32,052 nt of DNA from a virus (IMGVR_UViG_2548876861_000008); one strand, 5' to 3'. Shown: positions 1 through 32,052, numbered from the stretch's first letter. Translations and numbers: made by a program. Notes: generated by a model not told the origin, from the sequence alone.

Positions 1-1011
1 TTATAACGTCACTCCGCCTTTTAGTGGATTCAGAGCGACGGCATTTTGCAGATAGTCAGGCGCAAGGTGCGCATAGGCCATCGTCTGCTGAATGCTCGCA
101 TGTCCCAGAATCTGTTGCAGTGCGATTATATTGCCCCCATTCATCATGAAATGGCTTGCGAATGTATGCCGCAGGATGTGGGTTGCCTGATTGGGTGGTA
201 TATCAGGTTTCACTCTGCGTAAAATCCCGCAAAATTTCTCATAATCAACTTTGAATAATTTGGCGCTGGCCTCCTCTTTAACTTTTTTCTCCAGTTCCTC
301 AGAAATCGGCACGGTTCGCTTTTTACCGTTTTTGGTTTTCAGGAAGGTAACCCTGCAATTTGTAATCTGTGCTGGTTTTAGCGTGGCAACTTCCGTCCAT
401 CTTCCTCCAGTGCTCAGACATAAAAGCGCGACAAGTAAGTCATCACCAGCCAAAACATTTAACAGTTTTTCGATTTCTGCTTTTTCCAGGAACGTCATTT
501 CAGGGTTGGCCTCCGCCAGTGGCGGCAGTCCGTGAATTGGGTGTTGCCCGGAAAATTCATCCAATTGAATTAATTTTGTGAACATGCCGGATAATCGGTA
601 CATGTCACGGTTTATCGTTGCGGCACTGATACCATCACGTAGTCGCATGGAACGATAATCCATCAAAGCCCTTTTGCTCATCCTGCTCACTGGTATATCA
701 CCTATGCCGCTGATGGTTTTGAGTAGATGATTAAACTCTTTTGTTCCATGCTCGTGGTTTTGCCCGTGATATTTCCACCAGATGTCCAGCAACTCACTCA
801 AAGTCCGGCGGTCTGCTCGCTGGCCTCCCCATTCTTTCTGACTGGCATTGGCGATTGTGTATCGCTCAAATGCTAGTGCTTCAGCTTTTCTTTCGAATTT
901 CCTGCGGATGCGTTTTCCGTCGCGACCGCGAGGTCTAATGTCCACTTCATAGCGACCATCATCGAGCTTCTTAATTGCCATAAGAAAGCCCTCCGGCGCT
1001 GTATTCACCAT
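1..1011 (-). CDS. int: P2-family tyrosine integrase; window begins at its stop codon
   Basis: 336-aa ORF; C-terminal catalytic region (HILRHTFASH ... MAYAHL) typical of tyrosine recombinases; sits at prophage end next to the C repressor as in P2. Confidence 0.9.
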   Translation of the reverse strand: MVNTAPEGFLMAIKKLDDGRYEVDIRPRGRDGKRIRRKFERKAEALAFERYTIANASQKEWGGQRADRRTLSELLDIWWKYHGQNHEHGTKEFNHLLKTISGIGDIPVSRMSKRALMDYRSMRLRDGISAATINRDMYRLSGMFTKLIQLDEFSGQHPIHGLPPLAEANPEMTFLEKAEIEKLLNVLAGDDLLVALLCLSTGGRWTEVATLKPAQITNCRVTFLKTKNGKKRTVPISEELEKKVKEEASAKLFKVDYEKFCGILRRVKPDIPPNQATHILRHTFASHFMMNGGNIIALQQILGHASIQQTMAYAHLAPDYLQNAVALNPLKGGVTL

Positions 1012-3237: not shown

Positions 3238-3509
3238 GTATTCGTATTGAAATTGGCGAACATTATGTCGTTACCAGTGACAGCTTTCAGTTTATTCTCC
3301 ACGAGAAAAAGAGAGCTGAAAGCGGTAAAAACGCCGGTCAGGAATGGCTGTCGGTGGTTGGTTATTACCCGAAATTAAGCCAGCTCGTTTCCGGCCTGAT
3401 GCATCACGATATTCTGACCGGAAGCGCAAAGTCTTTTGCTGATTTAAACGCGCAGGTTGAGCAACTCAGCAAGCGTTGTTCAGAGGCTTTTGGCTCATAT
3501 GGCCGTTAA
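3234..3509 (+). CDS. early hypothetical protein (P2 orf83 position)
   Basis: 91-aa ORF immediately upstream of gpA. Confidence 0.45.
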   Translation: MSIRIEIGEHYVVTSDSFQFILHEKKRAESGKNAGQEWLSVVGYYPKLSQLVSGLMHHDILTGSAKSFADLNAQVEQLSKRCSEAFGSYGR

Positions 3510-5775
3510 AGCCTCCGGGCGTTTTGTCCCTCCGTCAGCATTTGCCGCAGGCACCGGTAAGACGTTTACCGGTGCTTATGCATGGAACGCGCCACGCGAG
3601 GCCGTCGGGCGCGAAAGACCCCTTACACGTGACGAGATGCGTCAGGTGCAAGGTGTTTTATCCACGATTAACCGCCTGCCTTACTTTTTGCGCTCTCTGT
3701 TTACTTCACGCTATGACTACATCCGGCGCAATAAAAGCCCGGTGCACGGGTTTTATTTCCTCACATCCACTTTTCAGCGTCGTTTATGGCCGCGCATTGA
3801 GCGTGTGAATCAGCGCCATGAAATGAACACCGACGCGTCGTTACTGTTTCTGGCAGAGCGTGACCACTATGCGCGCCTGCCGGGAATGAATGACAAGGAG
3901 CTGAAAAAGTTTGCTGCCCGTATCTCATCGCAGCTTTTCATGATGTATGGGGAACTCAGCGATGCCTGGGTGGATGCGCATGGCGAAAAAGAATCGCTGT
4001 TTACGGATGAGGCGCAGGCTCACCTGTATGGTCATGTTGCTGGCGCTGCACGTGCTTTCAATATTTCCCCGCTCTACTGGAAAAAATACCGTAAAGGGCA
4101 GATGACCACGAGGCAGGCATATTCTGCCATTGCCCGTCTGTTTAACGATGAGTGGTGGACTCATCAGCTTAAAGGCCAGCGTATGCGCTGGCATGAGGCG
4201 TTACTGATTGCTGTCGGGGAGGTCAATAAAGACCGTTCTCCTTATGCCAGTAAACATGCCATTCGTGATGTGCGTGCACGCCGCCAGGCAAATCTGGAAT
4301 TTCTTAAATCGTGTGACCTCGAAAACAGGGAAACCGGCGAGCGCATCGACCTTATCAGTAAGGTGATGGGCAGTATTTCTAATCCTGAAATTCGCCGGAT
4401 GGAGCTGATGAACACCATCGCCGGTATTGAGCGTTACGCCGCCGCAGAGGGTGATGTGGGGATGTTTATCACGCTGACCACGCCGTCAAAGTATCACCCG
4501 ACACGTCAGGTCGGAAAAGGAGAAAGTAAAACCGTCCAGCTTAATCACGGCTGGAACGATGAGGCATTTAATCCAAAGGATGCGCAGCGTTATCTCTGCC
4601 GTATCTGGAGCCTGATGCGCACGGCATTCAAGGATAATGATTTACAGGTCTACGGTTTGCGAGTCGTCGAGCCACACCACGACGGAACGCCGCACTGGCA
4701 TATGATGCTTTTTTGTAATCCACGCCAGCGTAACCAGATTATTGAAATCATGCGTCGCTACGCGCTCAAAGAGGATGGCGACGAAAGAGGAGCTGCGCGA
4801 AACCGTTTTCAGGCAAAACACCTTAACCGGGGCGGTGCTGCGGGATATATCGCGAAATACATTTCAAAAAACATCGACGGCTATGCACTGGATGGTCAGC
4901 TCGATAACGATACCGGCAGGCCGCTGAAAGACACTGCCGCGGCTGTTACCGCATGGGCGTCAACGTGGCGCATTCCGCAATTTAAAACTGTTGGCCTGCC
5001 GACAATGGGGGCTTACCGTGAACTACGCAAATTACCTCGCGGCGTCAGCATTGCTGATGAGTTTGACGAACGCGTCGAGGCTGCACGCGCTGCCGCAGAC
5101 AGTGGCGATTTTGCGCTGTATATCAGCGCGCAGGGTGGGGCAAATGTCCCGCGCGATTGTCAGACTGTCAGGGTCGCCCGTAGTCCGTCGGATGAAGTTA
5201 ACGAGTACGAGGAAGAAGTCGAGAGAGTGGTCGGCATTTACGCGCCGCATCTCGGCGCGCGTCATATTCATATCACCAGAACGACGGACTGGCGCATTGT
5301 TCCGAAAGTGCCGGTCGTTGAGCCTTTGACTGTAAAAAGCGGCATCGCCGCGCCTCGGAGTCCTGTCAATAACTGTGGAAAGCTCACCGGTGGTGATACT
5401 TCGTTACCGGCTCCCACACCTTCTGAGCACGCCGCAGCAGTGCTTAATCTGGTTGATGACGGTGTTATCGAATGGAATGACCCGGAGGTCGTGAGGGCGC
5501 TCAGGGGCGCATTAAAACACGGACTGAGAACACCAAATCGTCAGCAAAGAGCCGGAAGCCCGTTAAAACCGCATGAAATAGCGCCATCGGCCAGAATGAC
5601 CCGGTCGGAACGAATGCAAATTACCCGTATCCGCGTTGACCTTGCTCAGAACGGTATCAGACCGCAGCGATGGGAGCTTGAGGCGCTGGCGCGTGGCGCG
5701 ACCGTAAATTATGACGGGAAAAAATTCACGTATCCGGTCGCTAATGAGTGGTCGGTTTTTTCAGTTAAACAATAA
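3499..5775 (+). CDS. A: rolling-circle replication initiator gpA (nickase)
   Basis: Long ORF; HWHMMLF motif and AAGYIAKYISKN tyrosine region typical of the phage A / phiX174-A initiator superfamily; start at 3499 (MAVKASG) gives about 758 aa, close to recalled P2 A; upstream in-frame ATG at 3457 is also possible. Confidence 0.85.
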   Translation: MAVKASGRFVPPSAFAAGTGKTFTGAYAWNAPREAVGRERPLTRDEMRQVQGVLSTINRLPYFLRSLFTSRYDYIRRNKSPVHGFYFLTSTFQRRLWPRIERVNQRHEMNTDASLLFLAERDHYARLPGMNDKELKKFAARISSQLFMMYGELSDAWVDAHGEKESLFTDEAQAHLYGHVAGAARAFNISPLYWKKYRKGQMTTRQAYSAIARLFNDEWWTHQLKGQRMRWHEALLIAVGEVNKDRSPYASKHAIRDVRARRQANLEFLKSCDLENRETGERIDLISKVMGSISNPEIRRMELMNTIAGIERYAAAEGDVGMFITLTTPSKYHPTRQVGKGESKTVQLNHGWNDEAFNPKDAQRYLCRIWSLMRTAFKDNDLQVYGLRVVEPHHDGTPHWHMMLFCNPRQRNQIIEIMRRYALKEDGDERGAARNRFQAKHLNRGGAAGYIAKYISKNIDGYALDGQLDNDTGRPLKDTAAAVTAWASTWRIPQFKTVGLPTMGAYRELRKLPRGVSIADEFDERVEAARAAADSGDFALYISAQGGANVPRDCQTVRVARSPSDEVNEYEEEVERVVGIYAPHLGARHIHITRTTDWRIVPKVPVVEPLTVKSGIAAPRSPVNNCGKLTGGDTSLPAPTPSEHAAAVLNLVDDGVIEWNDPEVVRALRGALKHGLRTPNRQQRAGSPLKPHEIAPSARMTRSERMQITRIRVDLAQNGIRPQRWELEALARGATVNYDGKKFTYPVANEWSVFSVKQ

Positions 5776-5945
5776 TGACTACTACTGCAGTGTTGTGGGA
5801 ATGTTATAGTGTTTGTGGAATTTTTCTATGAAAAACAATGAATTAATCTGTTTTTCATATTGAGCTAATTTTTTATGGCCACAGTTGTTAAAAAGTGAGA
5901 ACATAATCTTGTTCAAAACCTGCTTCTATATACGGAGGCTTTCGC

Positions 5946-5951
5946 TATAAT
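5946..5951 (+). promoter_or_regulatory. TATAAT -10-like hexamer upstream of the methyltransferase gene; strong Shine-Dalgarno AGGAGG at 5965..5970
   Basis: Read from sequence; no convincing -35 found. Confidence 0.3.
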
Positions 5952-5976
5952 ACGCGGTCGGTTTTAGGAGGGGATA

Positions 5977-6921
5977 ATGCCAACAGTAGTTTCACTTTTT
6001 TCTGGATGCGGTGGTTCCGATGCGGGGGTTTTGAGAGCCGGCTTTGATGTGCTTATGGCCAACGATATCTTGCCGTATGCGCGCGATGTTTATATTGCCA
6101 ATCATCCAGAAACTGATTACATATTAGGCAATATTGCTGATGTAACTACTTTTCCTAAATCTGATTTGCTGGTAGGTTGTTATCCATGTCAGGGATTCAG
6201 CCAGGGTGGTGCGCGTAAAGCCGATCGAAAAATTAATACTCTTTATTTAGAGTTTGCTAGAGCTTTAAACAATATAAAGCCTAAAGCTTTTATAGTAGAA
6301 AACGTGTCTGGTATGGTTAGAAAAAATTTTGAGCATTTGTTATCTGACCAGATCAGGGTTTTTACTGAAGCAGGTTATACTGTTTCCGCAAAAGTTTTAA
6401 ATGCGGCTGAATATGGAGTAGCGCAGGAAAGAAAAAGAATATTTATCGTAGGAATCCGTAATGATTTCAAAGTTAAGTACGAGTTCCCTCAGCCAACTCA
6501 TGGGCCAGCAACTGGCGTCAACTATGTTACTATTAAAGATGCTATAGGGCATTTACCTGAATGGCCAGAAGGTGAATTTTATGATATGGGATTCCATTGG
6601 TATTATATGTCTCGCAATCGTCGCCAGGATTGGGATCAAATTTCAAAGACAATAGTTGCTAATGCAAGGCATATGCCGTTGCATCCTGTCAGTCCTCCGA
6701 TGGAGAAAGTAAGAACTGATGAATGGAGATTTGTTGAGGATCGGAGAGCTCGCAGATTCAGTTTTCGAGAGGCAGCACTATTACAAGGGTTTGAGGATCT
6801 AGTGTTTCCAGAAACAAATGCTGCAAGTCTTGGCATGAAATACACGGTGGTTGGTAATGCAGTGCCTCCGCCGCTTTTTGAAGCTGTAACGAAGGCATTG
6901 CCAATAGAATTATGGGATTGA
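5977..6921 (+). CDS. DNA (cytosine-5)-methyltransferase (Dcm-like C5-MTase)
   Basis: 314 aa; motif I FSGCGG, motif IV PCQGFS, motif VI ENV (FIVENVSGM), QERKR, C-terminal GNAVPPP motif X. Confidence 0.85.
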   Translation: MPTVVSLFSGCGGSDAGVLRAGFDVLMANDILPYARDVYIANHPETDYILGNIADVTTFPKSDLLVGCYPCQGFSQGGARKADRKINTLYLEFARALNNIKPKAFIVENVSGMVRKNFEHLLSDQIRVFTEAGYTVSAKVLNAAEYGVAQERKRIFIVGIRNDFKVKYEFPQPTHGPATGVNYVTIKDAIGHLPEWPEGEFYDMGFHWYYMSRNRRQDWDQISKTIVANARHMPLHPVSPPMEKVRTDEWRFVEDRRARRFSFREAALLQGFEDLVFPETNAASLGMKYTVVGNAVPPPLFEAVTKALPIELWD

Positions 6922-6928
6922 TAAGCTA

Positions 6929-7924
6929 TTAAGGCTCTGGATTTAATGTATAAAGCTCTTCCTCAAATTCGCGAAACCAATCAGAGGTAGTTATCGCTTC
7001 CCATTGGTTTGCCTTATCAAGTAGATATATGATTCTCAACCTATCTAATAATAATACCCCAGCGGTTGCGTGTGTGCTTACCCATTCGCCATTTGCTTCC
7101 CGATAGAAAACAGGCGTGAACATTGTTGATGGATGCTGGAACGCAATTTGGAAATAGGTGGTCAGTTTTAACACGTTAGCCTCTAATGTTTTGCTTGGCC
7201 ACCCTGTTTCTTGTGCACCACATTGACCAAGAATTCCATAGTTGCTAGTTTGACCATCAGGAAATTCCACTGTAGCAATTAGGTCAAACCCGGCATCACC
7301 AGATGTGGGAGCTCTATTTATTTCCCTTGTGTTTAAACTACAAACTCCAAGATCTTTTCCTAAAGTTTGTAGAGCTGTCCGAAGATTTGTTCCATAATAA
7401 TTTTGCCTATCATCGGAGTTAGCATCAAAAATTCTTACGGTGCCATGTGCAGGTAAGAGAGAAATCATTGCTACTTTACATACTCTGGCAAAGCTCTTTG
7501 CCCAACGTTGTGCTGCTCCTTTAATCGACTTAAAGGATCTAAGTCTAGAGCAGCAAAGAAGAAAAACATATATTCGTTGTTGTTGGTTTAGATTTTCTTT
7601 AATAATTATCTCATCACCTGAAATTATAAATGGATATATTTTGCCAAGAGCACTTTCTCTATATTCGAGTTGTGTCCAAACATCTTCGAGTTGCTCTTCA
7701 AAACGATCATTTCTCTCAGCGTCTCCATTAATTTCTTCTTCAGAATTACATTCTTCATCAATTTCTTCAACGCTTGTTATGCCGAATTTTCTTACTGAAT
7801 CTAAATCATTTTTATGTAGTGAGTTACGTCCGGTATAATTAATTACCGTGAGTAACTCGGCTAAATCTGCAAACAAATGAGGAGAGTTGGGATGCATAAC
7901 TCCTACTTCAAAAGTCATCATCAC
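6929..7924 (-). CDS. hypothetical protein, second gene of cargo operon; function unknown
   Basis: 331-aa ORF on minus strand, 17-bp overlap with upstream gene; AT-rich codon usage unlike the phage backbone; no motif I can assign. Confidence 0.6.
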   Translation of the reverse strand: MMMTFEVGVMHPNSPHLFADLAELLTVINYTGRNSLHKNDLDSVRKFGITSVEEIDEECNSEEEINGDAERNDRFEEQLEDVWTQLEYRESALGKIYPFIISGDEIIIKENLNQQQRIYVFLLCCSRLRSFKSIKGAAQRWAKSFARVCKVAMISLLPAHGTVRIFDANSDDRQNYYGTNLRTALQTLGKDLGVCSLNTREINRAPTSGDAGFDLIATVEFPDGQTSNYGILGQCGAQETGWPSKTLEANVLKLTTYFQIAFQHPSTMFTPVFYREANGEWVSTHATAGVLLLDRLRIIYLLDKANQWEAITTSDWFREFEEELYTLNPEP

Positions 7925-9068
7925 CTCTGCTATTTTTCTCTGCTATTTCAGAACCTATAAGCTTAATATGTTTATTGATTCTTCGTGCTACTTCATGGGC
8001 CTGTCTATCATACTCTACCGTGGCAACCATGCCTGCTGCATCTATCAAAGCTGCTTCAACTTGATAAAGTAACTGGAGAAAGTCCTTAGTAATATCAGAT
8101 GTCAATTGATAGGCAACTGCGAGTGGAGCCCCCATTCGGAATTGCTCCAATGCCTTAGGGCTACTTACAACAGCAGCTAGTTCTCTTAAATTACGTGATT
8201 CTCCTACACGAGTTTTTTTATCCTCGCCTTTTTTATATAACCATTCAGTTAGTTCTTTTATTTCTTTGTTCTTTAAACTCTTAGAATTGATGATAGGATG
8301 ACTTGGTATTGTGTCTCCATCGTCTTCGATTGAAACTCCGACAAACTGGCCTAACCGCTCATCAGCAAGTGCTGTTGATAATACTGAAAATTTAATCGTT
8401 TCTTCATCTAGCTTTTCAATACCATAAAAATCATTTTTTTTAATGATTTCATACACCGCTAAAGCGTCTAGGTTACGCTTGATATGATCCCTACGACTGC
8501 CAATAGCTCTGGCAACCTCATAGTAGCGTAGCATTGGATCCAGATTTGCATTGGTATAATCAAAAAGCTGTTTAATATATCGAGCTTTTGATAAGGGTTC
8601 CCATTGTTTGACACCAGTAATATGTCTGAAACCAAGGTACGGAAGAATCTCTTCTCTTGTTTGGCGCTCAATGACAGGAACACGATCGACCGTATGTTTT
8701 GCATTTGATGCAATTTCTCGTAGTCGAGCACTTGGATTTTCACATAGTGTCGGATCGCGTAATAATTTGACCGCGGATAGGCGACGGTTTCCTTCAACTA
8801 CAATGTACTTCCCCGGCGCTCCACTATCAGGAATGACAATCAATGGTTCTCCAGGGAAAAAACCATTTTCCGCAATAGCACTCATTAGGTCTTCGATAGA
8901 TGTTGAGGTTGCTATGTAGTTAATCATTCCCAATTGGTCACGAGACACGCCTTCAGGAAGTCTTGGGTTTTCTGTGTCAAGTTCCAAATCATCTAGCGGA
9001 ACATAAAGTATTTCTGAATCAGCAATCATCTGGATCTCCGTTGAACATGTCCACGAGAAGGAGCACAA
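7908..9068 (-). CDS. ParB/Srx-fold (ParB N-terminal-like) domain protein, first gene of cargo operon
   Basis: 386-aa ORF; N-terminal region KYIVVEGNRRLSAVKLL resembles the ParB GxxRxxA box; long alpha-helical-looking C-terminal region. Confidence 0.6.
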   Translation of the reverse strand: MCSFSWTCSTEIQMIADSEILYVPLDDLELDTENPRLPEGVSRDQLGMINYIATSTSIEDLMSAIAENGFFPGEPLIVIPDSGAPGKYIVVEGNRRLSAVKLLRDPTLCENPSARLREIASNAKHTVDRVPVIERQTREEILPYLGFRHITGVKQWEPLSKARYIKQLFDYTNANLDPMLRYYEVARAIGSRRDHIKRNLDALAVYEIIKKNDFYGIEKLDEETIKFSVLSTALADERLGQFVGVSIEDDGDTIPSHPIINSKSLKNKEIKELTEWLYKKGEDKKTRVGESRNLRELAAVVSSPKALEQFRMGAPLAVAYQLTSDITKDFLQLLYQVEAALIDAAGMVATVEYDRQAHEVARRINKHIKLIGSEIAEKNSRGDDDF

Positions 9069-9255
9069 AGTTATTTCATAACATGCAATATACTCATTCT
9101 GTAGCCATAAATGAATTATTCATGATGTAAGATTCGCGTTGATGTGCGTGAATTCGCAAGTAATTATACAGCAAGGTTTGATTGGGTATCGTCAGCACCA
9201 GTGCGGTTCCAACGTACTCATGCAACTGCATTAAAACCGCCCCATGAAGCGGGCG

Positions 9256-9274
9256 GGCGAGGCGGGGAAAGCAC
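9256..9274. other. cos cohesive-end site (19-nt ggcgaggcggggaaagcac)
   Basis: Exact match to the 19-nt cohesive end I recall for P2; lies just downstream of portal gene Q as in P2. Confidence 0.6.
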
Positions 9275-9415
9275 TGCGCGCTGGCGGTGGTGCTGATTTT
9301 ATTTTTTCAGCGTCTGAGCGCGTCGTGATGGCGTTTAGATTGTTAGCCGGGGCGTTGGTGTGTCTGCGGGCTGTTTTGTGCGGTGGTGAGCGTGTGAGAG
9401 CGTGATGGCGGGTTG

Positions 9416-9438
9416 TAAAAAAGCCGCCCGCAGGCGGC
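9416..9438 (-). terminator. Rho-independent terminator after Q (minus strand)
   Basis: GC stem gccgcc/ggcggc (9423..9438) with a run of A on the plus strand (T-run on minus) at 9416..9422, immediately 3' of Q stop. Confidence 0.5.
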
Positions 9439-9443
9439 GATGT

Positions 9444-10478
9444 TCAGCCGTTGTCAGTGTCCAGTGAGTAGTTTTTAAAGCGGATGACCTCCTGACCGAG
9501 CCAGCCGTTTATCTCGCGGATCCTGTCCTGTAACGGGATAAGCTCATTGCGGACAAAGACCTTTGCCACTTTCTCAATATCGCCCAGCGACCCGACGTTT
9601 TCCGGCTTGCCACCCATCAACTGAAAGGGGATGCGGTGCGCGTCAAGCAGGTCAGCGGCGCTGGCTTTTTTGATATTAAAAAAATCGTCCTTCGTTGCCA
9701 CTTCACTGAGCGGGATAATTTTAATACCGTCGGCTTTTCCCTGTGGGGCGTAGAGAAACAGGTTTTTAAAGTTGTTGCGGCCTTTCGACTTCACCATGTT
9801 TTCGCGAAGCATTTCGATATCGTTGCGGTCCTGCACGGCATCGGTGACGTACATGATGTATCCGGCATGAGCGCCGTTTTCGTAATACTTGCGGCGGAAC
9901 AGCGTGGCCGACTCATTCAGCCAGGCAGAGTTAAGGGCGCTGAGATATTCCGGCAGGCCGTACAGCTCCTGATTAATATCCGGCTCCAGCAGGTGAAACA
10001 CGGAGCCGGGTGCGAAGGCTGTCGGCTCGTTGAAGGACGGCACCCACCAGTAAACATCCTCCTCCACGCCACGACGGGTATATTTGGCCGGTGAGGTTTC
10101 CAGTCTGATTACCTTACCGGTGGTGCTGTAACGCTTTTCCAGAAACGCATTACCGAACACCAGAAAATCCAGCACAAAGCGGCTGAAATCCTGCTGGGAA
10201 AGCCACGGATGCGGGATAAATGTCGAGGCCAGAATATTACGTTTGACGTAAATCGGTGAGCTGTGATGCACGGCAGCACGCAGGCTTTTTGCCAGACCGG
10301 TAAAGCTGACCGGTGGCTCATACCATCTGCCGTTACTGATGCACTCGACGTAATCCAGAATGTCACGGCGGTCGAGTACCGGCACCGGCTCGCCAAAGGT
10401 GAATGCCTCCATTTTCGGGGCGCTGGCAGTCATTGTTTTCACCGCTGGCTGCGGTGTTTTCCCTTTTTTCTTACTCAT
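9444..10478 (-). CDS. Q: portal protein
   Basis: 344 aa, same length and position as P2 gpQ; stop/start coupled with P. Confidence 0.9.
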   Translation of the reverse strand: MSKKKGKTPQPAVKTMTASAPKMEAFTFGEPVPVLDRRDILDYVECISNGRWYEPPVSFTGLAKSLRAAVHHSSPIYVKRNILASTFIPHPWLSQQDFSRFVLDFLVFGNAFLEKRYSTTGKVIRLETSPAKYTRRGVEEDVYWWVPSFNEPTAFAPGSVFHLLEPDINQELYGLPEYLSALNSAWLNESATLFRRKYYENGAHAGYIMYVTDAVQDRNDIEMLRENMVKSKGRNNFKNLFLYAPQGKADGIKIIPLSEVATKDDFFNIKKASAADLLDAHRIPFQLMGGKPENVGSLGDIEKVAKVFVRNELIPLQDRIREINGWLGQEVIRFKNYSLDTDNG

Positions 10479-21187: not shown

Positions 21188-22383
21188 CAGTGAAATACTA
21201 CGCCATTCTGACTAATCAGGGCGCAGCACGGCTGGCTAACGCGACGATGCTCGGCAGTAAGCTGAATCTGACGCAAATGGCCGTTGGTGATGCGAATGGT
21301 GTCTTGCCGACACCAGACCCGGCACAGACAAAACTGATTAACCAGAAACGCATCGCGCCGCTGAATCTTCTGAGTGTTGACCCGAACAACCAGAGCCAGA
21401 TTATTGCGGAGCAAATCATCCCTGAGAACGAGGGCGGATTCTGGATCCGTGAGATTGGGCTTTATGATGATGAAGGCGTACTCATTGCGGTGGCGAACTG
21501 CCCGGAAACGTACAAACCGCAGTTGCAGGAAGGCAGTGGTCGTACCCAGACTATCCGCATGATTCTGGTTGTCACGAATACCGAAGCTATCACGCTGAAA
21601 ATCGACCCGTCGGTGGTACTGGCGACCCGTAAATACGTGGATGATGAAGTCCTGGAATTAAAGCTGTATGTGGATGACCAGATGAGAAACCACATTGCCG
21701 CACAGGATCCTCATACCCAGTATGCGCAGAAACATAATCCGACATTTACCGGAGAACCAAAAGCGCCGACGCCTGCCGCAGGAAATAACACCACGCGGAT
21801 TGCGACCACTGAGTTTGTTCAGGCCGCTATTACCGCTCTGATTAACGGTGCGCCAGCCACGCTGGACACACTGAAAGAAATTGCCGCAGCCATTAACAAT
21901 GACCCGAAATTCAGTACCACCATTAACAATGCGCTGTCAGGTAAGCAGCCACTGGATGAGACGCTGACTCATTTGAGTGGAAAGGATGTTGCCGGTCTTC
22001 TCGCATACCTTGGTTTGGGAGAAGCGGCAAAACGGAATGTAGGAACAGGGGAAAATCAGATACCGGACATGACCTCTTTTGCCAGTGGTGATGGATGGAT
22101 GAAATTACCCAACGGGAAAATCCTGCAATATGGTCGTGGTGCGATTACGCCGACATTATCGACGCAAACAATGAGAATTACATTCAGCATCCCTTTTCCT
22201 AAAAAAGTGGACTGCGCCATGCTTACCCATTCTGGTGATGGTGGTGCGCCTTTAGGCGCTGGACGGGGATTCGTGATGACTGCAGAAGGTCCAACACTAA
22301 CCGGTTTTAATTCCGCTTACAGAACTGCATCAACCAGCTCCACAGTATCGATGAATTACAGTTGGTGGGCTGTTGGTGAGTAA
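21184..22383 (+). CDS. H: tail fibre protein H (currently expressed variable C-terminus)
   Basis: 399 aa; N-terminus has the conserved P2-H-like AVANCPETYKPQLQEGSGR region; 3' part lies inside the invertible segment. Confidence 0.85.
   Translation: MTVKYYAILTNQGAARLANATMLGSKLNLTQMAVGDANGVLPTPDPAQTKLINQKRIAPLNLLSVDPNNQSQIIAEQIIPENEGGFWIREIGLYDDEGVLIAVANCPETYKPQLQEGSGRTQTIRMILVVTNTEAITLKIDPSVVLATRKYVDDEVLELKLYVDDQMRNHIAAQDPHTQYAQKHNPTFTGEPKAPTPAAGNNTTRIATTEFVQAAITALINGAPATLDTLKEIAAAINNDPKFSTTINNALSGKQPLDETLTHLSGKDVAGLLAYLGLGEAAKRNVGTGENQIPDMTSFASGDGWMKLPNGKILQYGRGAITPTLSTQTMRITFSIPFPKKVDCAMLTHSGDGGAPLGAGRGFVMTAEGPTLTGFNSAYRTASTSSTVSMNYSWWAVGE
22010..22043. repeat. Left 34-bp inverted repeat / crossover site of the invertible tail-fibre segment (ttggtttgggagaagcggcaaaacggaatgtagg)
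   Basis: Exact reverse-complement copy at 23569..23602, verified base by base. Confidence 0.75.
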
Positions 22384-22394
22384 TTTTATTCAGG

Positions 22395-22847
22395 GTGATT
22401 TATATGAACGAATATGTTTATAGCGCAAGGCATAATGCTTTTTTCCCTGTGGATATGATTGATAAATATAAATCAGAGGGATGGGATTTATCAGACGCAA
22501 AGGAAGTAAATCAAAATATTATCAGTGAGTTTATGGCTGAACCGCCACAAGGAAAAATCCGTATTGCCGGAGATGATGGGCTGCCTGCGTGGGCAGATAT
22601 TCCTCCACCCACGCATGAAGAGCTTATTGAAATTACTGAATCAGAAAGACAGCTACTAATTAACCAGGCTAACGAATACATGAACAGCAAGCAATGGCCT
22701 GGCAAAGCAGCTATTGGTCGTCTGAAAGGTGAGGAACTGGCGCAATATAATTTGTGGCTGGATTACCTGGACGCACTGGAACTGGTGGGTACCTCCAGTG
22801 CTCCAGATATTGAATGGCCTACACCTCCGGTAACTCAGGCCAGCTAA
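22395..22847 (+). CDS. G: tail fibre assembly protein (active-orientation copy)
   Basis: 150-aa ORF directly after H; C-terminus (DIEWPTPP) parallels the convergent minus-strand copy. Confidence 0.75.
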   Translation: MIYMNEYVYSARHNAFFPVDMIDKYKSEGWDLSDAKEVNQNIISEFMAEPPQGKIRIAGDDGLPAWADIPPPTHEELIEITESERQLLINQANEYMNSKQWPGKAAIGRLKGEELAQYNLWLDYLDALELVGTSSAPDIEWPTPPVTQAS

Positions 22848-23244
22848 TCTCAGGAGCCGTCGAAGTGTCGACGGCTTTTACTTCTTTTTTGTAGTCCATC
22901 CAGGCAGATAGTTTTTCTTTATCTGTACTGCTAATATCACCAAGCATTAATTCCACTCGCCAGTCAGCTGTGACATTATCGGCATGAGCAAGTAACTGCA
23001 TTCGCTGATTTTCCGCACGTGCGACATAATCAATCGCCGGGGATTTTAGTACCGGTAAACCATTTTCATCTGACGTGATTAATTTACCCCCTTCCTGCTG
23101 TCCGGCAATTAATTCATTGTATAAGTCTGTACTTATCTCAACAATGTCAGCAGGCATGTCGCTGTTTATACCATCAAAGAAAAAACCATTAGTCGATTTT
23201 GAGAAATAAATCATAGATATACCTATACACCGATTGCTACCCAA
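22819..23244 (-). CDS. alternative tail fibre assembly protein (inverted-orientation copy)
   Basis: 141-aa minus-strand ORF convergent with G and overlapping it by about 29 bp; C-terminus (EISWPELPEV) similar to G. Confidence 0.7.
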   Translation of the reverse strand: MGSNRCIGISMIYFSKSTNGFFFDGINSDMPADIVEISTDLYNELIAGQQEGGKLITSDENGLPVLKSPAIDYVARAENQRMQLLAHADNVTADWRVELMLGDISSTDKEKLSAWMDYKKEVKAVDTSTAPEISWPELPEV

Positions 23245-23602
23245 AAACAGGATCTTTCATATTTGACAATTTCTCCCTGAGATATACCGCCAACAATTAT
23301 ATAGAACTGTGATTTGCTGATATCAGAACAGTTCGCTATGCCCATTGCAGATATACCAGCCACCGACGTTGTATGTGGCACAGCCAACAGCGCAAGTGAA
23401 CGATTTGGGAATGTTACCGGGTAAGTCACCGTATAGTTTGATGCTCCACTGACAATACCCCACTGAATAATCAGACCTGAAGGAAGTTTTTGAAAACCCG
23501 TTGATGAAAGTGAACTGGCAAACGCCGCCATATCCGGAATTTGGTTTTGCCCGTTACCTACATTCCGTTTTGCCGCTTCTCCCAAACCAACGTTTATGAA
23601 AA
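23223..23602 (-). CDS. alternative tail-fibre C-terminal cassette (promoterless; would fuse to H constant region after inversion)
   Basis: Minus-strand ORF begins with the same LGLGEAAKRNVG peptide encoded by the inverted repeat and ends in a different receptor-binding-like tail. Confidence 0.6.
23569..23602. repeat. Right 34-bp inverted repeat / crossover site
   Basis: Reverse complement of 22010..22043. Confidence 0.75.
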
Positions 23603-23657
23603 TGCAGAGATAACGGGCAAGTGGCATCATCTCCGGTTTTTATTCAGGGGGATGCTC

Positions 23658-24251
23658 ATGCTTATTGGCTATGTACGCGTGTCGACAAATGACCAGAACA
23701 CGGAATTGCAGCGTAACGCGCTGAAGTGCGCAGGATGTGAGCTGATTTTTGAGGACAAAATCAGCGGCACGAAGTCCGACAGGCCGGGACTGAAAAAACT
23801 GCTCAGGACATTATCGGAGGGGGATACACTGGTAGTCTGGAAGCTGGACCGGCTGGGGCGTAGTATGCGGCATCTGGTCATTCTGGTTGAGGAACTGCGC
23901 GAACGCGGCGTTAATTTTCGCAGCCTGACAGATGCTATTGATACCAGCACGCCGATGGGGCGTTTTTTCTTTCATGTGATGGGTGCCCTGGCTGAAATGG
24001 AACGAGAGCTCATTGTCGAGCGGACTCGGGCCGGGCTGGAAGCGGCCAGAGCCAAAGGTCGTATTGGTGGCAGACGTCCTAAACTCACCGCGAGTGAGTG
24101 GGAGCAGGCCGGGCGTTTGCTGGCTGCAGGGGAGTCACGTCAACGCGTGGCACTGATTTTTGATATTGGTCTGTCCACGCTCTATAAAAAATTTCCCTCA
24201 TCAGCGACAAAGAATAAATTGTGTCATCCCTTAGCCAACCGGGACAAATAG
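23658..24251 (+). CDS. Gin/Pin/Cin/Hin-family serine DNA invertase
   Basis: MLIGYVRVSTNDQN... N-terminus with catalytic serine, C-terminal HTH; immediately adjacent to right inverted repeat as gin is to the Mu G segment. Confidence 0.85.
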   Translation: MLIGYVRVSTNDQNTELQRNALKCAGCELIFEDKISGTKSDRPGLKKLLRTLSEGDTLVVWKLDRLGRSMRHLVILVEELRERGVNFRSLTDAIDTSTPMGRFFFHVMGALAEMERELIVERTRAGLEAARAKGRIGGRRPKLTASEWEQAGRLLAAGESRQRVALIFDIGLSTLYKKFPSSATKNKLCHPLANRDK

Positions 24252-31068: not shown

Positions 31069-31149
31069 ATCCTCAATTTGCCTGCTGCTTAATGCATTGC
31101 AGATGATTTGCTTCCGTTATACTACCGTCAGTTGATAGCGGGAGTATTT

Positions 31150-32052
31150 ATGAATCAATCTTATGGACGGCTGGTCAGTCGGGCGGCGATTGCTGCGACG
31201 GCGATGGCTTCGCTGCTATTGCTGATTAAAATTTTTGCATGGTGGTATACCGGGTCGGTGAGTATTCTCGCCGCGCTGGTGGATTCGCTGGTGGATATCG
31301 GCGCGTCGTTGACGAATTTACTGGTGGTGCGATATTCCCTGCAACCTGCCGACGATAATCACTCGTTTGGTCACGGTAAAGCTGAGTCTCTCGCGGCGCT
31401 GGCGCAAAGTATGTTTATCTCCGGTTCGGCACTATTCCTGTTTTTGACGGGTATTCAACATCTGGTATCTCCAACACCGATGACAGATCCAGGCGTCGGG
31501 GTTATCGTGACAATTGTGGCGCTAATTTGTACGATTATCCTTGTCTCGTTTCAGCGTTGGGTGGTGCGCCGGACGCAAAGCCAGGCGGTGCGGGCTGATA
31601 TGCTACATTACCAGTCTGATGTTATGATGAACGGCGCAATTCTGCTGGCGCTGGGGTTGTCCTGGTACGGCTGGCATCGCGCCGATGCTCTGTTTGCATT
31701 GGGGATCGGCATCTATATTTTATATAGCGCGTTACGCATGGGATATGAGGCGGTACAGTCATTACTGGATCGCGCATTGCCTGATGAGGAACGGCAAGAA
31801 ATTATTGATATCGTGGCTTCCTGGCCGGGTGTTAGCGGCGCTCACGATCTTCGCACGCGGCAGTCAGGGCCGACCCGCTTTATTCAGATTCATTTGGAAA
31901 TGGAAGACTCTCTGCCTTTGGTTCAGGCACATATGGTGGCGGATCAGGTAGAGCAGGCTATTTTACGGCGTTTTCCGGGATCGGATGTGATTATCCATCA
32001 GGACCCCTGTTCCGTCGTACCCAGGGAGGGTAAACGGTCTATGCTTTCATAA
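31150..32052 (+). CDS. fieF: cation-diffusion-facilitator Fe/Zn efflux transporter FieF (YiiP); host chromosomal gene
   Basis: 300-aa protein [38 protein letters not shown]..., recognised as E. coli FieF; window ends at its stop codon. Confidence 0.9.

Follow-up and report, generated by a model that had tools for sequence, protein, structure and literature searches.

A C5-cytosine methylase linked to a ParB-fold protein and a nuclease-like protein: a probable restriction-modification-like cassette in the A/Q hotspot of P2-like prophages

Introduction

In classical type II restriction-modification (R-M) systems, the specificities of endonuclease and methylase change together, and convergent layouts of the two genes are common. 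GmrSD and SspE combine an NTPase of the ParB/Srx fold with a nuclease module, the two being encoded separately or fused (PMC4619093). Their nucleases belong to the HNH class (DUF1524), and GmrSD is modification-dependent and lacks a cognate methylase. PD-lambda-5 is a ParB-plus-methylase system that protects broadly against phages and required a host deleted for the mrr region (PMC9519451), from which in vivo activity of its methylase is evident. Its two genes encode component A (~500 aa), with a ParBc domain and a weak C-terminal HEPN domain, and component B, a D12-class (Dam-like) N6-adenine methylase. A three-gene locus, orf98/orf96/mth, is found in phage Wphi (NC_005056), where the products are annotated merely as gp98, gp96 and ‘DNA cytosine methylase’ and the record assigns no function.

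In phage P2 itself, the slot between genes A and Q is occupied by tin and old. This A/Q interval constitutes anti-phage system hotspot #1 of P2 (PMC9122126, PMC9519451). Here, we analyze a cassette of the same layout and in the same slot as that of Wphi, present in a 32,052-nt stretch of viral DNA (IMGVR_UViG_2548876861_000008; hereafter ‘the window’). It encodes a C5-cytosine methylase (M), a nuclease-like protein (R) and a ParB-like protein (P). Our preferred reading, which we consider probable though far from certain, is that M, R and P form one methylation-gated, ParB-assisted restriction cassette carried as cargo of the P2 A/Q hotspot, its function being deduced from gene content, folds, linkage and the pattern of co-evolution.

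Results and discussion

A low-GC cargo island in a complete P2-like prophage

Integrase, gpA, portal, terminase and tail genes, recognized by Pfam and other annotation, identify the window as a complete P2-like prophage, which bears out the preliminary description of the methylase gene as prophage-borne. Beyond the cassette, it contains P2 genes and a single host gene, a cation-efflux (FieF-type) gene at the right end (31108-32052; PF01545 and ZT_dimer), so that the window takes in the prophage up to its junction with the host, the integrase lying at the other end. The cassette occupies an island of 38-42% GC within a backbone of 53-57%, with values of 0.35-0.44 for the island and 0.52-0.58 for the flanks, and similarity to other P2 phages restarts to the right of it, at ~9215-9443 (Table 1). 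This is a variable low-GC insert between A and Q of a P2-like prophage, as in hotspot #1.

On the left side, strains O145 (locus L028, 3564-4249) and 14EC020 (locus L029, 3600-4258) have two genes separating the cassette from gene A, a homologue of P2 orf91 (DUF3850) and a small hypothetical one, and orf91 is present in this position in Wphi as well. Both genes are missing from the window (5776-5976), and the left boundary of the insert therefore varies between cassette types.

Table 1 Features of the cassette and its surroundings in the window (dot, no strand)
Feature	Position	Strand	Remarks
Integrase	1-1011		P2-like prophage gene
P2 gpA replication endonuclease, cassette flank	3457-5775	+	PF05840, 5e-123
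Low-GC cargo island	5776-9214 (approx.)	.	Between replication gene A and portal gene Q
Putative M expression signals	5946-5976	+	TATAAT 5946-5951, AGGAGG 5966-5971; read from sequence
M, C5-cytosine DNA methyltransferase, 314 aa	5977-6921	+	PF00145; HaeIII-like target-recognition domain (~residues 176-275)
Gap between convergent M and R stop codons, 7 bp	6922-6928	.	No terminator found
R, 329 aa	6929-7918	-	N-terminal helical region, winged helix, C-terminal PD-(D/E)xK-like nuclease fold
Overlap of P end and R start, 11 nt	7908-7918	-	Translational coupling; same overlap in most related loci
P, ParB/Srx-fold protein, 373 aa	7908-9029	-	KorB/ParB-type helix-turn-helix and C-terminal helical hairpin
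Upstream region of the P-R operon	9030-9214	-	Putative TATAAT hexamer 9168-9163, read from sequence
P2 portal protein Q, cassette flank	9444-10478	-	PF04860 and RefSeq annotation

M is a HaeIII-like methylase of ordinary size

The M gene opens with an ATG and closes with a stop codon at 6919-6921. That it holds all core motifs of a C5 methylase within 314 aa had been noted before, and all five were recovered, in the canonical order I, IV, VI, VIII and X: FSGCGG (residues 8-13), PCQ (70-72, with the catalytic Cys71), ENV (108-110), QERKR (150-154) and GNAV (293-296). In addition, the protein matches PF00145 (5.5e-65 over residues 3-308; 220 bits at a cut-off of 22) and TIGR00675 (1.4e-56). The accompanying suggestion of a compact enzyme with a small target-recognition domain (TRD), however, did not hold up. 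M aligns with M.HaeIII over its full length, TRD included (1.4e-48), and is only slightly shorter than the M.HaeIII chains (324-331 aa) and M.HhaI (327 aa). The TRDs align end to end, and a length of 314 aa is what one would expect of a C5 methylase with one specificity.

The TRDs of M and M.HaeIII share 34% identity, and equivalents of HaeIII R225, R227 and R243, which we take to be DNA-contact residues of M.HaeIII, are retained in the alignment. By this homology, M possibly modifies a GGCC-like site, which we offer as a lead only; an exact assignment of the recognition site was given up because of the 34% figure. Across 74 M orthologues, the TRD core is conserved like the catalytic core (0.865 and 0.843, respectively), which points to one mark common to the whole family. 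Among PADLOC models, M scores best against DruM (1.1e-113, residues 4-308), which is the Druantia type II methylase. One methylase family is therefore shared with another defence system, where it provides the modification. DruE, DruF and DruG are absent from the window, and the cassette is thus not Druantia II. As for expression, no hit of a consensus promoter scan exceeded chance, and the TATAAT hexamers that precede M and P were not among its calls.

P has a ParB/Srx fold and R a likely nuclease fold

P starts with an ATG at 9029 that follows GGAG, its reading frame reaching upstream to a TTG at 9068. The structure model (pLDDT 89.6) matched KorB (9.2), sulfiredoxin (9.1), SerK (9.0), PadC (8.6), the N-terminal domain of pNOB8 ParB (8.4) and Spo0J (7.2). 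A Box II-like stretch, G80-N-R-R-L-S-A86, aligns with GERRLRA of Helicobacter pylori ParB, and its pattern GxRRxxA is invariant across the family.

The ParB N-domain and the KorB-like helix-turn-helix of P would also suit a partition or transcriptional (KorB-like) protein serving episomal maintenance or regulation, with R and M as accessories, and Yersinia phage HQ103, whose cassette is 100% identical to that of the window, persists plasmid-like in Y. pestis (PMC11177050). Yet neither the island nor the window holds a ParA-like gene as expected of a ParABS system; the constant partner of P is R, to which it is always coupled and with which it co-evolves. The R-P pair is also found in chromosomal non-phage contexts, and most carriers are integrated prophages. 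We hence deem a partition role extremely improbable.

R, whose minus-strand stop codon lies at 6929-6931 and for which an alternative GTG start exists at 7924, contains an invariant motif, SGDxGxD(212)...GQ(232)CGAQE..WPxK(243)xLE...DRxR, that is kept even between subfamilies at 25% identity. The motif is reminiscent of the D...QxK-type sites of nucleases, except for a glycine where a lysine is usual. The predicted fold is similar to the catalytic domains of restriction enzymes, with MspJI as the top structural match, and we regard R as a likely nuclease.

Annotation of the R family is blank. R has no family match in Pfam or NCBIfam and is recognized by none of the PADLOC models; relaxed Pfam scans with 22 R members and a search of PDB sequences with an R profile gave noise only. 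The 252 close homologues are all ~330 aa long and all labelled ‘hypothetical’. A profile search of 1.84 billion representatives returned 1255 clusters at E ≤ 1e-3, with modest scores, and the best 150 of these 1255 were all standalone proteins. The R family thus amounts to more than 1,200 50%-identity clusters without any annotation.

For a control of R by P, GmrSD and SspE offer the best precedent, by analogy. The composition differs: R is PD-(D/E)xK-like rather than HNH, P carries a KorB-like helix-turn-helix rather than the DUF262 architecture, Pfam found neither DUF262 nor DUF1524 in the window, and the cassette has a methylase in cis. Lacking an HNH domain and having this methylase, the cassette is not a GmrSD system. 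The same precedent invites a further interpretation, in which P and R would be a modification-dependent (type IV-like) nuclease directed against modified phage DNA, like GmrSD or MspJI, and M would be otherwise employed. The combination of a ParB/Srx-fold NTPase with nuclease domains, which defines GmrSD and SspE (PMC4619093), and the MspJI match of R are in line with it. However, the likeness to MspJI is confined to the catalytic domain, an SRA-like reader domain was not detected, and a 5mC-dependent nuclease strictly linked to a 5mC methylase would turn on the very cell that encodes it. A type IV-like role of P and R therefore strikes us as very improbable.

M, R and P travel together

Of 80 viral contigs retrieved via M orthologues at 69-100% identity, 77 have R and P directly beside M; the three others break off too early to show them. 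Among complete genomes of E. coli, window-type M, the window-type R-P pair and the whole island each occur 48 times, and the M clade at large is carried by 226 of 5426 genomes (~4%). Five contexts of E. coli and phage were inspected, and each proved to be an M/R/P trio in the P2 hotspot, namely those of H9Ecoli, O145:H28 RM13514, 14EC020, DSM 103246 (with the cassette inverted) and phage vB_EcoM-12474III. An inversion of the cassette within the hotspot, as in locus L030, leaves the trio together.

Most loci are convergent, and a same-strand M-P-R order occurs in loci L023 and L024 and in five metagenome loci. Outside these collections, P accompanies R in 23 of 23 GTDB loci, which belong to Gamma- and Betaproteobacteria apart from a metagenome-assembled genome (MAG) of Acidobacteriota, and an orthologous M is present in 12 of the 18 GTDB R-P loci that could be evaluated. 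Among ~44 metagenome R-P loci, M is found in 40 and absent from 3-4 evaluable ones. Neither gpA nor gpQ is nearby in 21 of the 23 GTDB loci and 18 of the 80 viral loci, and P2 genes are missing from the neighbourhood of most loci outside the enterobacteria. As the linkage persists across gene orders and outside P2, the trio moves as a unit. R is coupled to P wherever a contig extends upstream of R, mostly by overlapping genes. E. coli ATCC 8739, a strain in common use for laboratory work and QC (locus H108, NZ_CP043852.1, 3851063-3853163), carries an R-P pair 97% identical to that of the window.

Methylase and putative endonuclease genes are thus inherited together (77/77 viral loci, 48/48 E. 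coli genomes). These data bear on the two options originally put forward for M, orphan self-protection or the modification part of an R-M-like module. Orphan methylases are frequent in phages, and M might shield phage DNA in this manner, with P and R forming an unrelated module in the same slot; such independence would fit the opposite orientation of M, its own promoter-like signals and the existence of some R-P pairs without M. But the M clade was never seen without its partners where the contig allows a check, and the orphan option is therefore not supported. Moreover, the trio stays intact outside P2 and in other gene orders, including a single M-P-R operon, and near-identical M genes are re-paired with R-P subfamilies alone and not with unrelated cargo. 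Two independent cargoes are in our view improbable, and the complete linkage, which survives rearrangement, constitutes comparative evidence for M as a component of an R-M-like module.

Among the papers searched, none describes the cassette or mentions WP_001143636, WP_000142509 or WP_000559725 by name. Rousset 2022 is silent on any ParB or methylase system, two papers on HQ103 do not discuss the cassette genes, and two further candidates, a Pectobacteriaceae Tn-seq paper and an STEC nanopore paper, proved to concern other methylases.

The convergent junction is not a conserved device

The 7-bp junction between M and the downstream minus-strand operon is exact as initially given, with the M stop ending at 6921 and the R stop beginning at 6929. 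Its reading as a sign of co-regulation fared less well. Elsewhere, the M-R spacing ranges from a 4-bp overlap in 14EC020 and 0 bp in O145 to ~960 bp in locus L004, and M and R are co-directional in some cassettes. Because the spacing varies in this way, the 7-bp junction cannot be a general regulatory device, and we discarded the idea of a conserved convergent control element. Locally, convergent read-through across the terminator-less gap may matter in the window copy. The content of the operon had gone unnoticed at first: it encodes a ParB-like protein and a nuclease-like protein instead of a classical single restriction enzyme.

R and P diverge in concert around a constant M

In pairwise comparisons of 74 distinct cassettes, M had a median identity of 74%, as opposed to 31% in R and 37% in P. 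The divergence of R correlated tightly with that of P (Pearson r = 0.97), compared with coefficients of 0.38 and 0.36 for M against R and P, respectively. In 120 cassette pairs, M was at least 90% identical, and in 53 of these 120, R fell below 35% identity. Extreme in this respect are the O145 and Wphi cassettes, with 98% identity in M, 26% in R and 34% in P; compared with the window, Wphi is 76% identical in M, 25% in R (5e-24) and 34% in P and represents a different R-P subfamily. Near-identical M genes were found re-paired with other R-P subfamilies only, never with unrelated cargo. We read R and P as probable physical partners that evolve fast together, and M as what appears to be a constant, single-specificity module recombined among R-P subfamilies.

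With its full-length M.HaeIII homologue beside a protein of restriction-endonuclease-like fold, the cassette resembles type II systems with HaeIII-type methylases. It departs from them in that the nuclease side comprises two proteins, one with a ParB/Srx nucleotide-binding fold, M specificity is apparently fixed, R and P diverge to 21-35% identity, and some R-P pairs lack an adjacent M. This two-subunit nuclease side with an NTP-binding fold, in place of an endonuclease acting alone, sets it apart from classical type II systems. Defence cargo in the A/Q slot is to be expected. A constant M combined with R-P pairs that differ so strongly is not what classical type II systems usually show, and it counts against our preferred reading of a restriction cassette.

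R-P pairs without M and broken cassettes

The main caveat to the restriction reading comes from R-P pairs lacking an adjacent M, as in 6/18 evaluable GTDB and 3-4/~44 metagenome loci, with the R motif intact; overall, the M-less share of R-P pairs is 10% to 30%. None was found in complete E. coli genomes. In a Methylococcaceae MAG (locus L003, 2584-7008), an M-less pair lies directly downstream of the type I R-M specificity gene hsdS and an AAA ATPase gene; in a Methylovulum MAG (locus L008, 1008-5104), an IS605/TnpB element takes the usual M position; and in loci L011 and L015-L017, the latter three from Crenothrix and Methylococcales MAGs, such pairs are embedded among housekeeping genes. 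No other methylases adjoin the M-less pairs, whose neighbours are hsdS, the IS605 element and housekeeping genes. As the R motif is intact, these pairs imply that R-P may not kill unmethylated self, unless M resides elsewhere in the genome. Separately, in locus L138 (6401-7399), a different C5 methylase, 42% identical, is encoded co-directionally downstream of R and the usual orthologue is absent, a constellation that may reflect methylase replacement.

If R-P is not constitutively dangerous, which is one option for the M-less pairs, this favours an infection-triggered, Abi-like reading. P and R would then be a toxic effector by which the infected cell dies or stops growing, similar to PD-lambda-5, which Vassallo et al. 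call a compacted prophage RM+Abi (PMC9519451), and M would be separate or regulatory, for instance by adding a first layer that resembles restriction or by marking self so that the effector stays silent. An effector that stays silent until triggered would be expected to occur without adjacent M, and P matches the PD-Lambda-5_A models of PADLOC (6.6e-29). On the other hand, PD-lambda-5 has a D12-class adenine methylase and no R-like protein, and the 100% dependence of the M clade on R-P best suits a self-mark role. Nor did structure comparison find a HEPN fold in P; the Rx4H-like RRINKH of the window copy was dropped as a candidate since it is not conserved in the family. Overall, we judge an Abi-like effector unlikely, albeit worth keeping in mind.

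The cassette shares with PD-lambda-5 its prophage location, the pairing of a ParB N-domain protein with a DNA methylase, and, in P, the ParB domain characteristic of component A. It differs in its C5 methylase, in a P of 373 aa that lacks HEPN, and in the third obligate protein R. The resemblance is limited to the ParB domain, and the cassette is not PD-lambda-5.

Two naturally broken cassettes were found, both broken in P with M and R intact. E. coli GF54 (locus L111, 2333-4228) carries an IS1 insertion in P, and E. coli NCTC8623 (locus L112, 2480-3602) a P frameshift that is possibly a long-read assembly error. No case of a broken M with an intact R-P was seen. The P-only breaks would fit, though weakly, a cassette whose cost lies in R-P. 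The plague-diagnostic Yersinia phage L-413C (locus L026, 207-1199) retains only a truncated P, 62% identical over residues 9-303; without R and M, its hotspot holds a decayed cassette remnant.

A proposed mechanism and its implications

The cassette is most likely an R-M-like defence system that had gone unnamed. M would introduce 5-methylcytosine into host chromosome and prophage alike, at one short and unvarying site, and both would thereby be protected. P and R, co-produced from overlapping genes, would act as a complex that attacks incoming DNA devoid of the mark, R probably cleaving and P contributing an NTP-dependent step such as loading, sliding or switching. Linkage, R-P co-divergence, the conserved TRD of M, the folds of R and P, the location in a defence hotspot and the P-only breaks are what we take to speak for this restriction cassette.

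More tentatively, the cassette could be the founding example of a new R-M class, in which a nucleotide-switched ParB/KorB clamp, P, is loaded onto DNA or slides along it and licenses the winged-helix nuclease R unless a family-wide 5mC is met. One common mark would then provide the basis for telling self from non-self, while R and P would diversify quickly under phage counter-defence. Such a subunit logic would be unlike that of types I-IV, a suggestion we make with the same reserve.

If the restriction reading is true, roughly one in 25 sequenced E. coli genomes, as well as phages Wphi and HQ103, carry an unrecognized restriction-like system, which defence-finding tools would label at most as an incomplete PD-lambda-5 and a stray methylase. 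A ParB-type nucleotide switch would join the known controls of restriction nucleases, and the cassette would show in nature how an unchanging ‘self mark’ can go with effector pairs that evolve fast. Consequences would extend to the host range of phages and to the efficiency of transformation, and 5mC patterns would become relevant to nanopore base-calling and to Mcr/Mrr incompatibility. The cassette may furthermore serve as an addiction module that stabilizes P2-like prophages.

A putative host-range switch in the tail-fibre region

Far from the cassette, the window contains a pair of 89-nt inverted repeats (21998-22086 and 23514-23602; 81% complementary) flanking a ~1.4-kb segment. The genes of this segment encode an alternative tail-fibre C-terminus (23223-23630, minus strand) and a second tail-fibre assembly protein (22819-23244, minus strand), and a resolvase-type invertase gene (23541-24251, plus strand) adjoins it. 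The region as a whole (21998-24251) looks like a host-range switch of the Mu G-segment kind, foreign to canonical P2.
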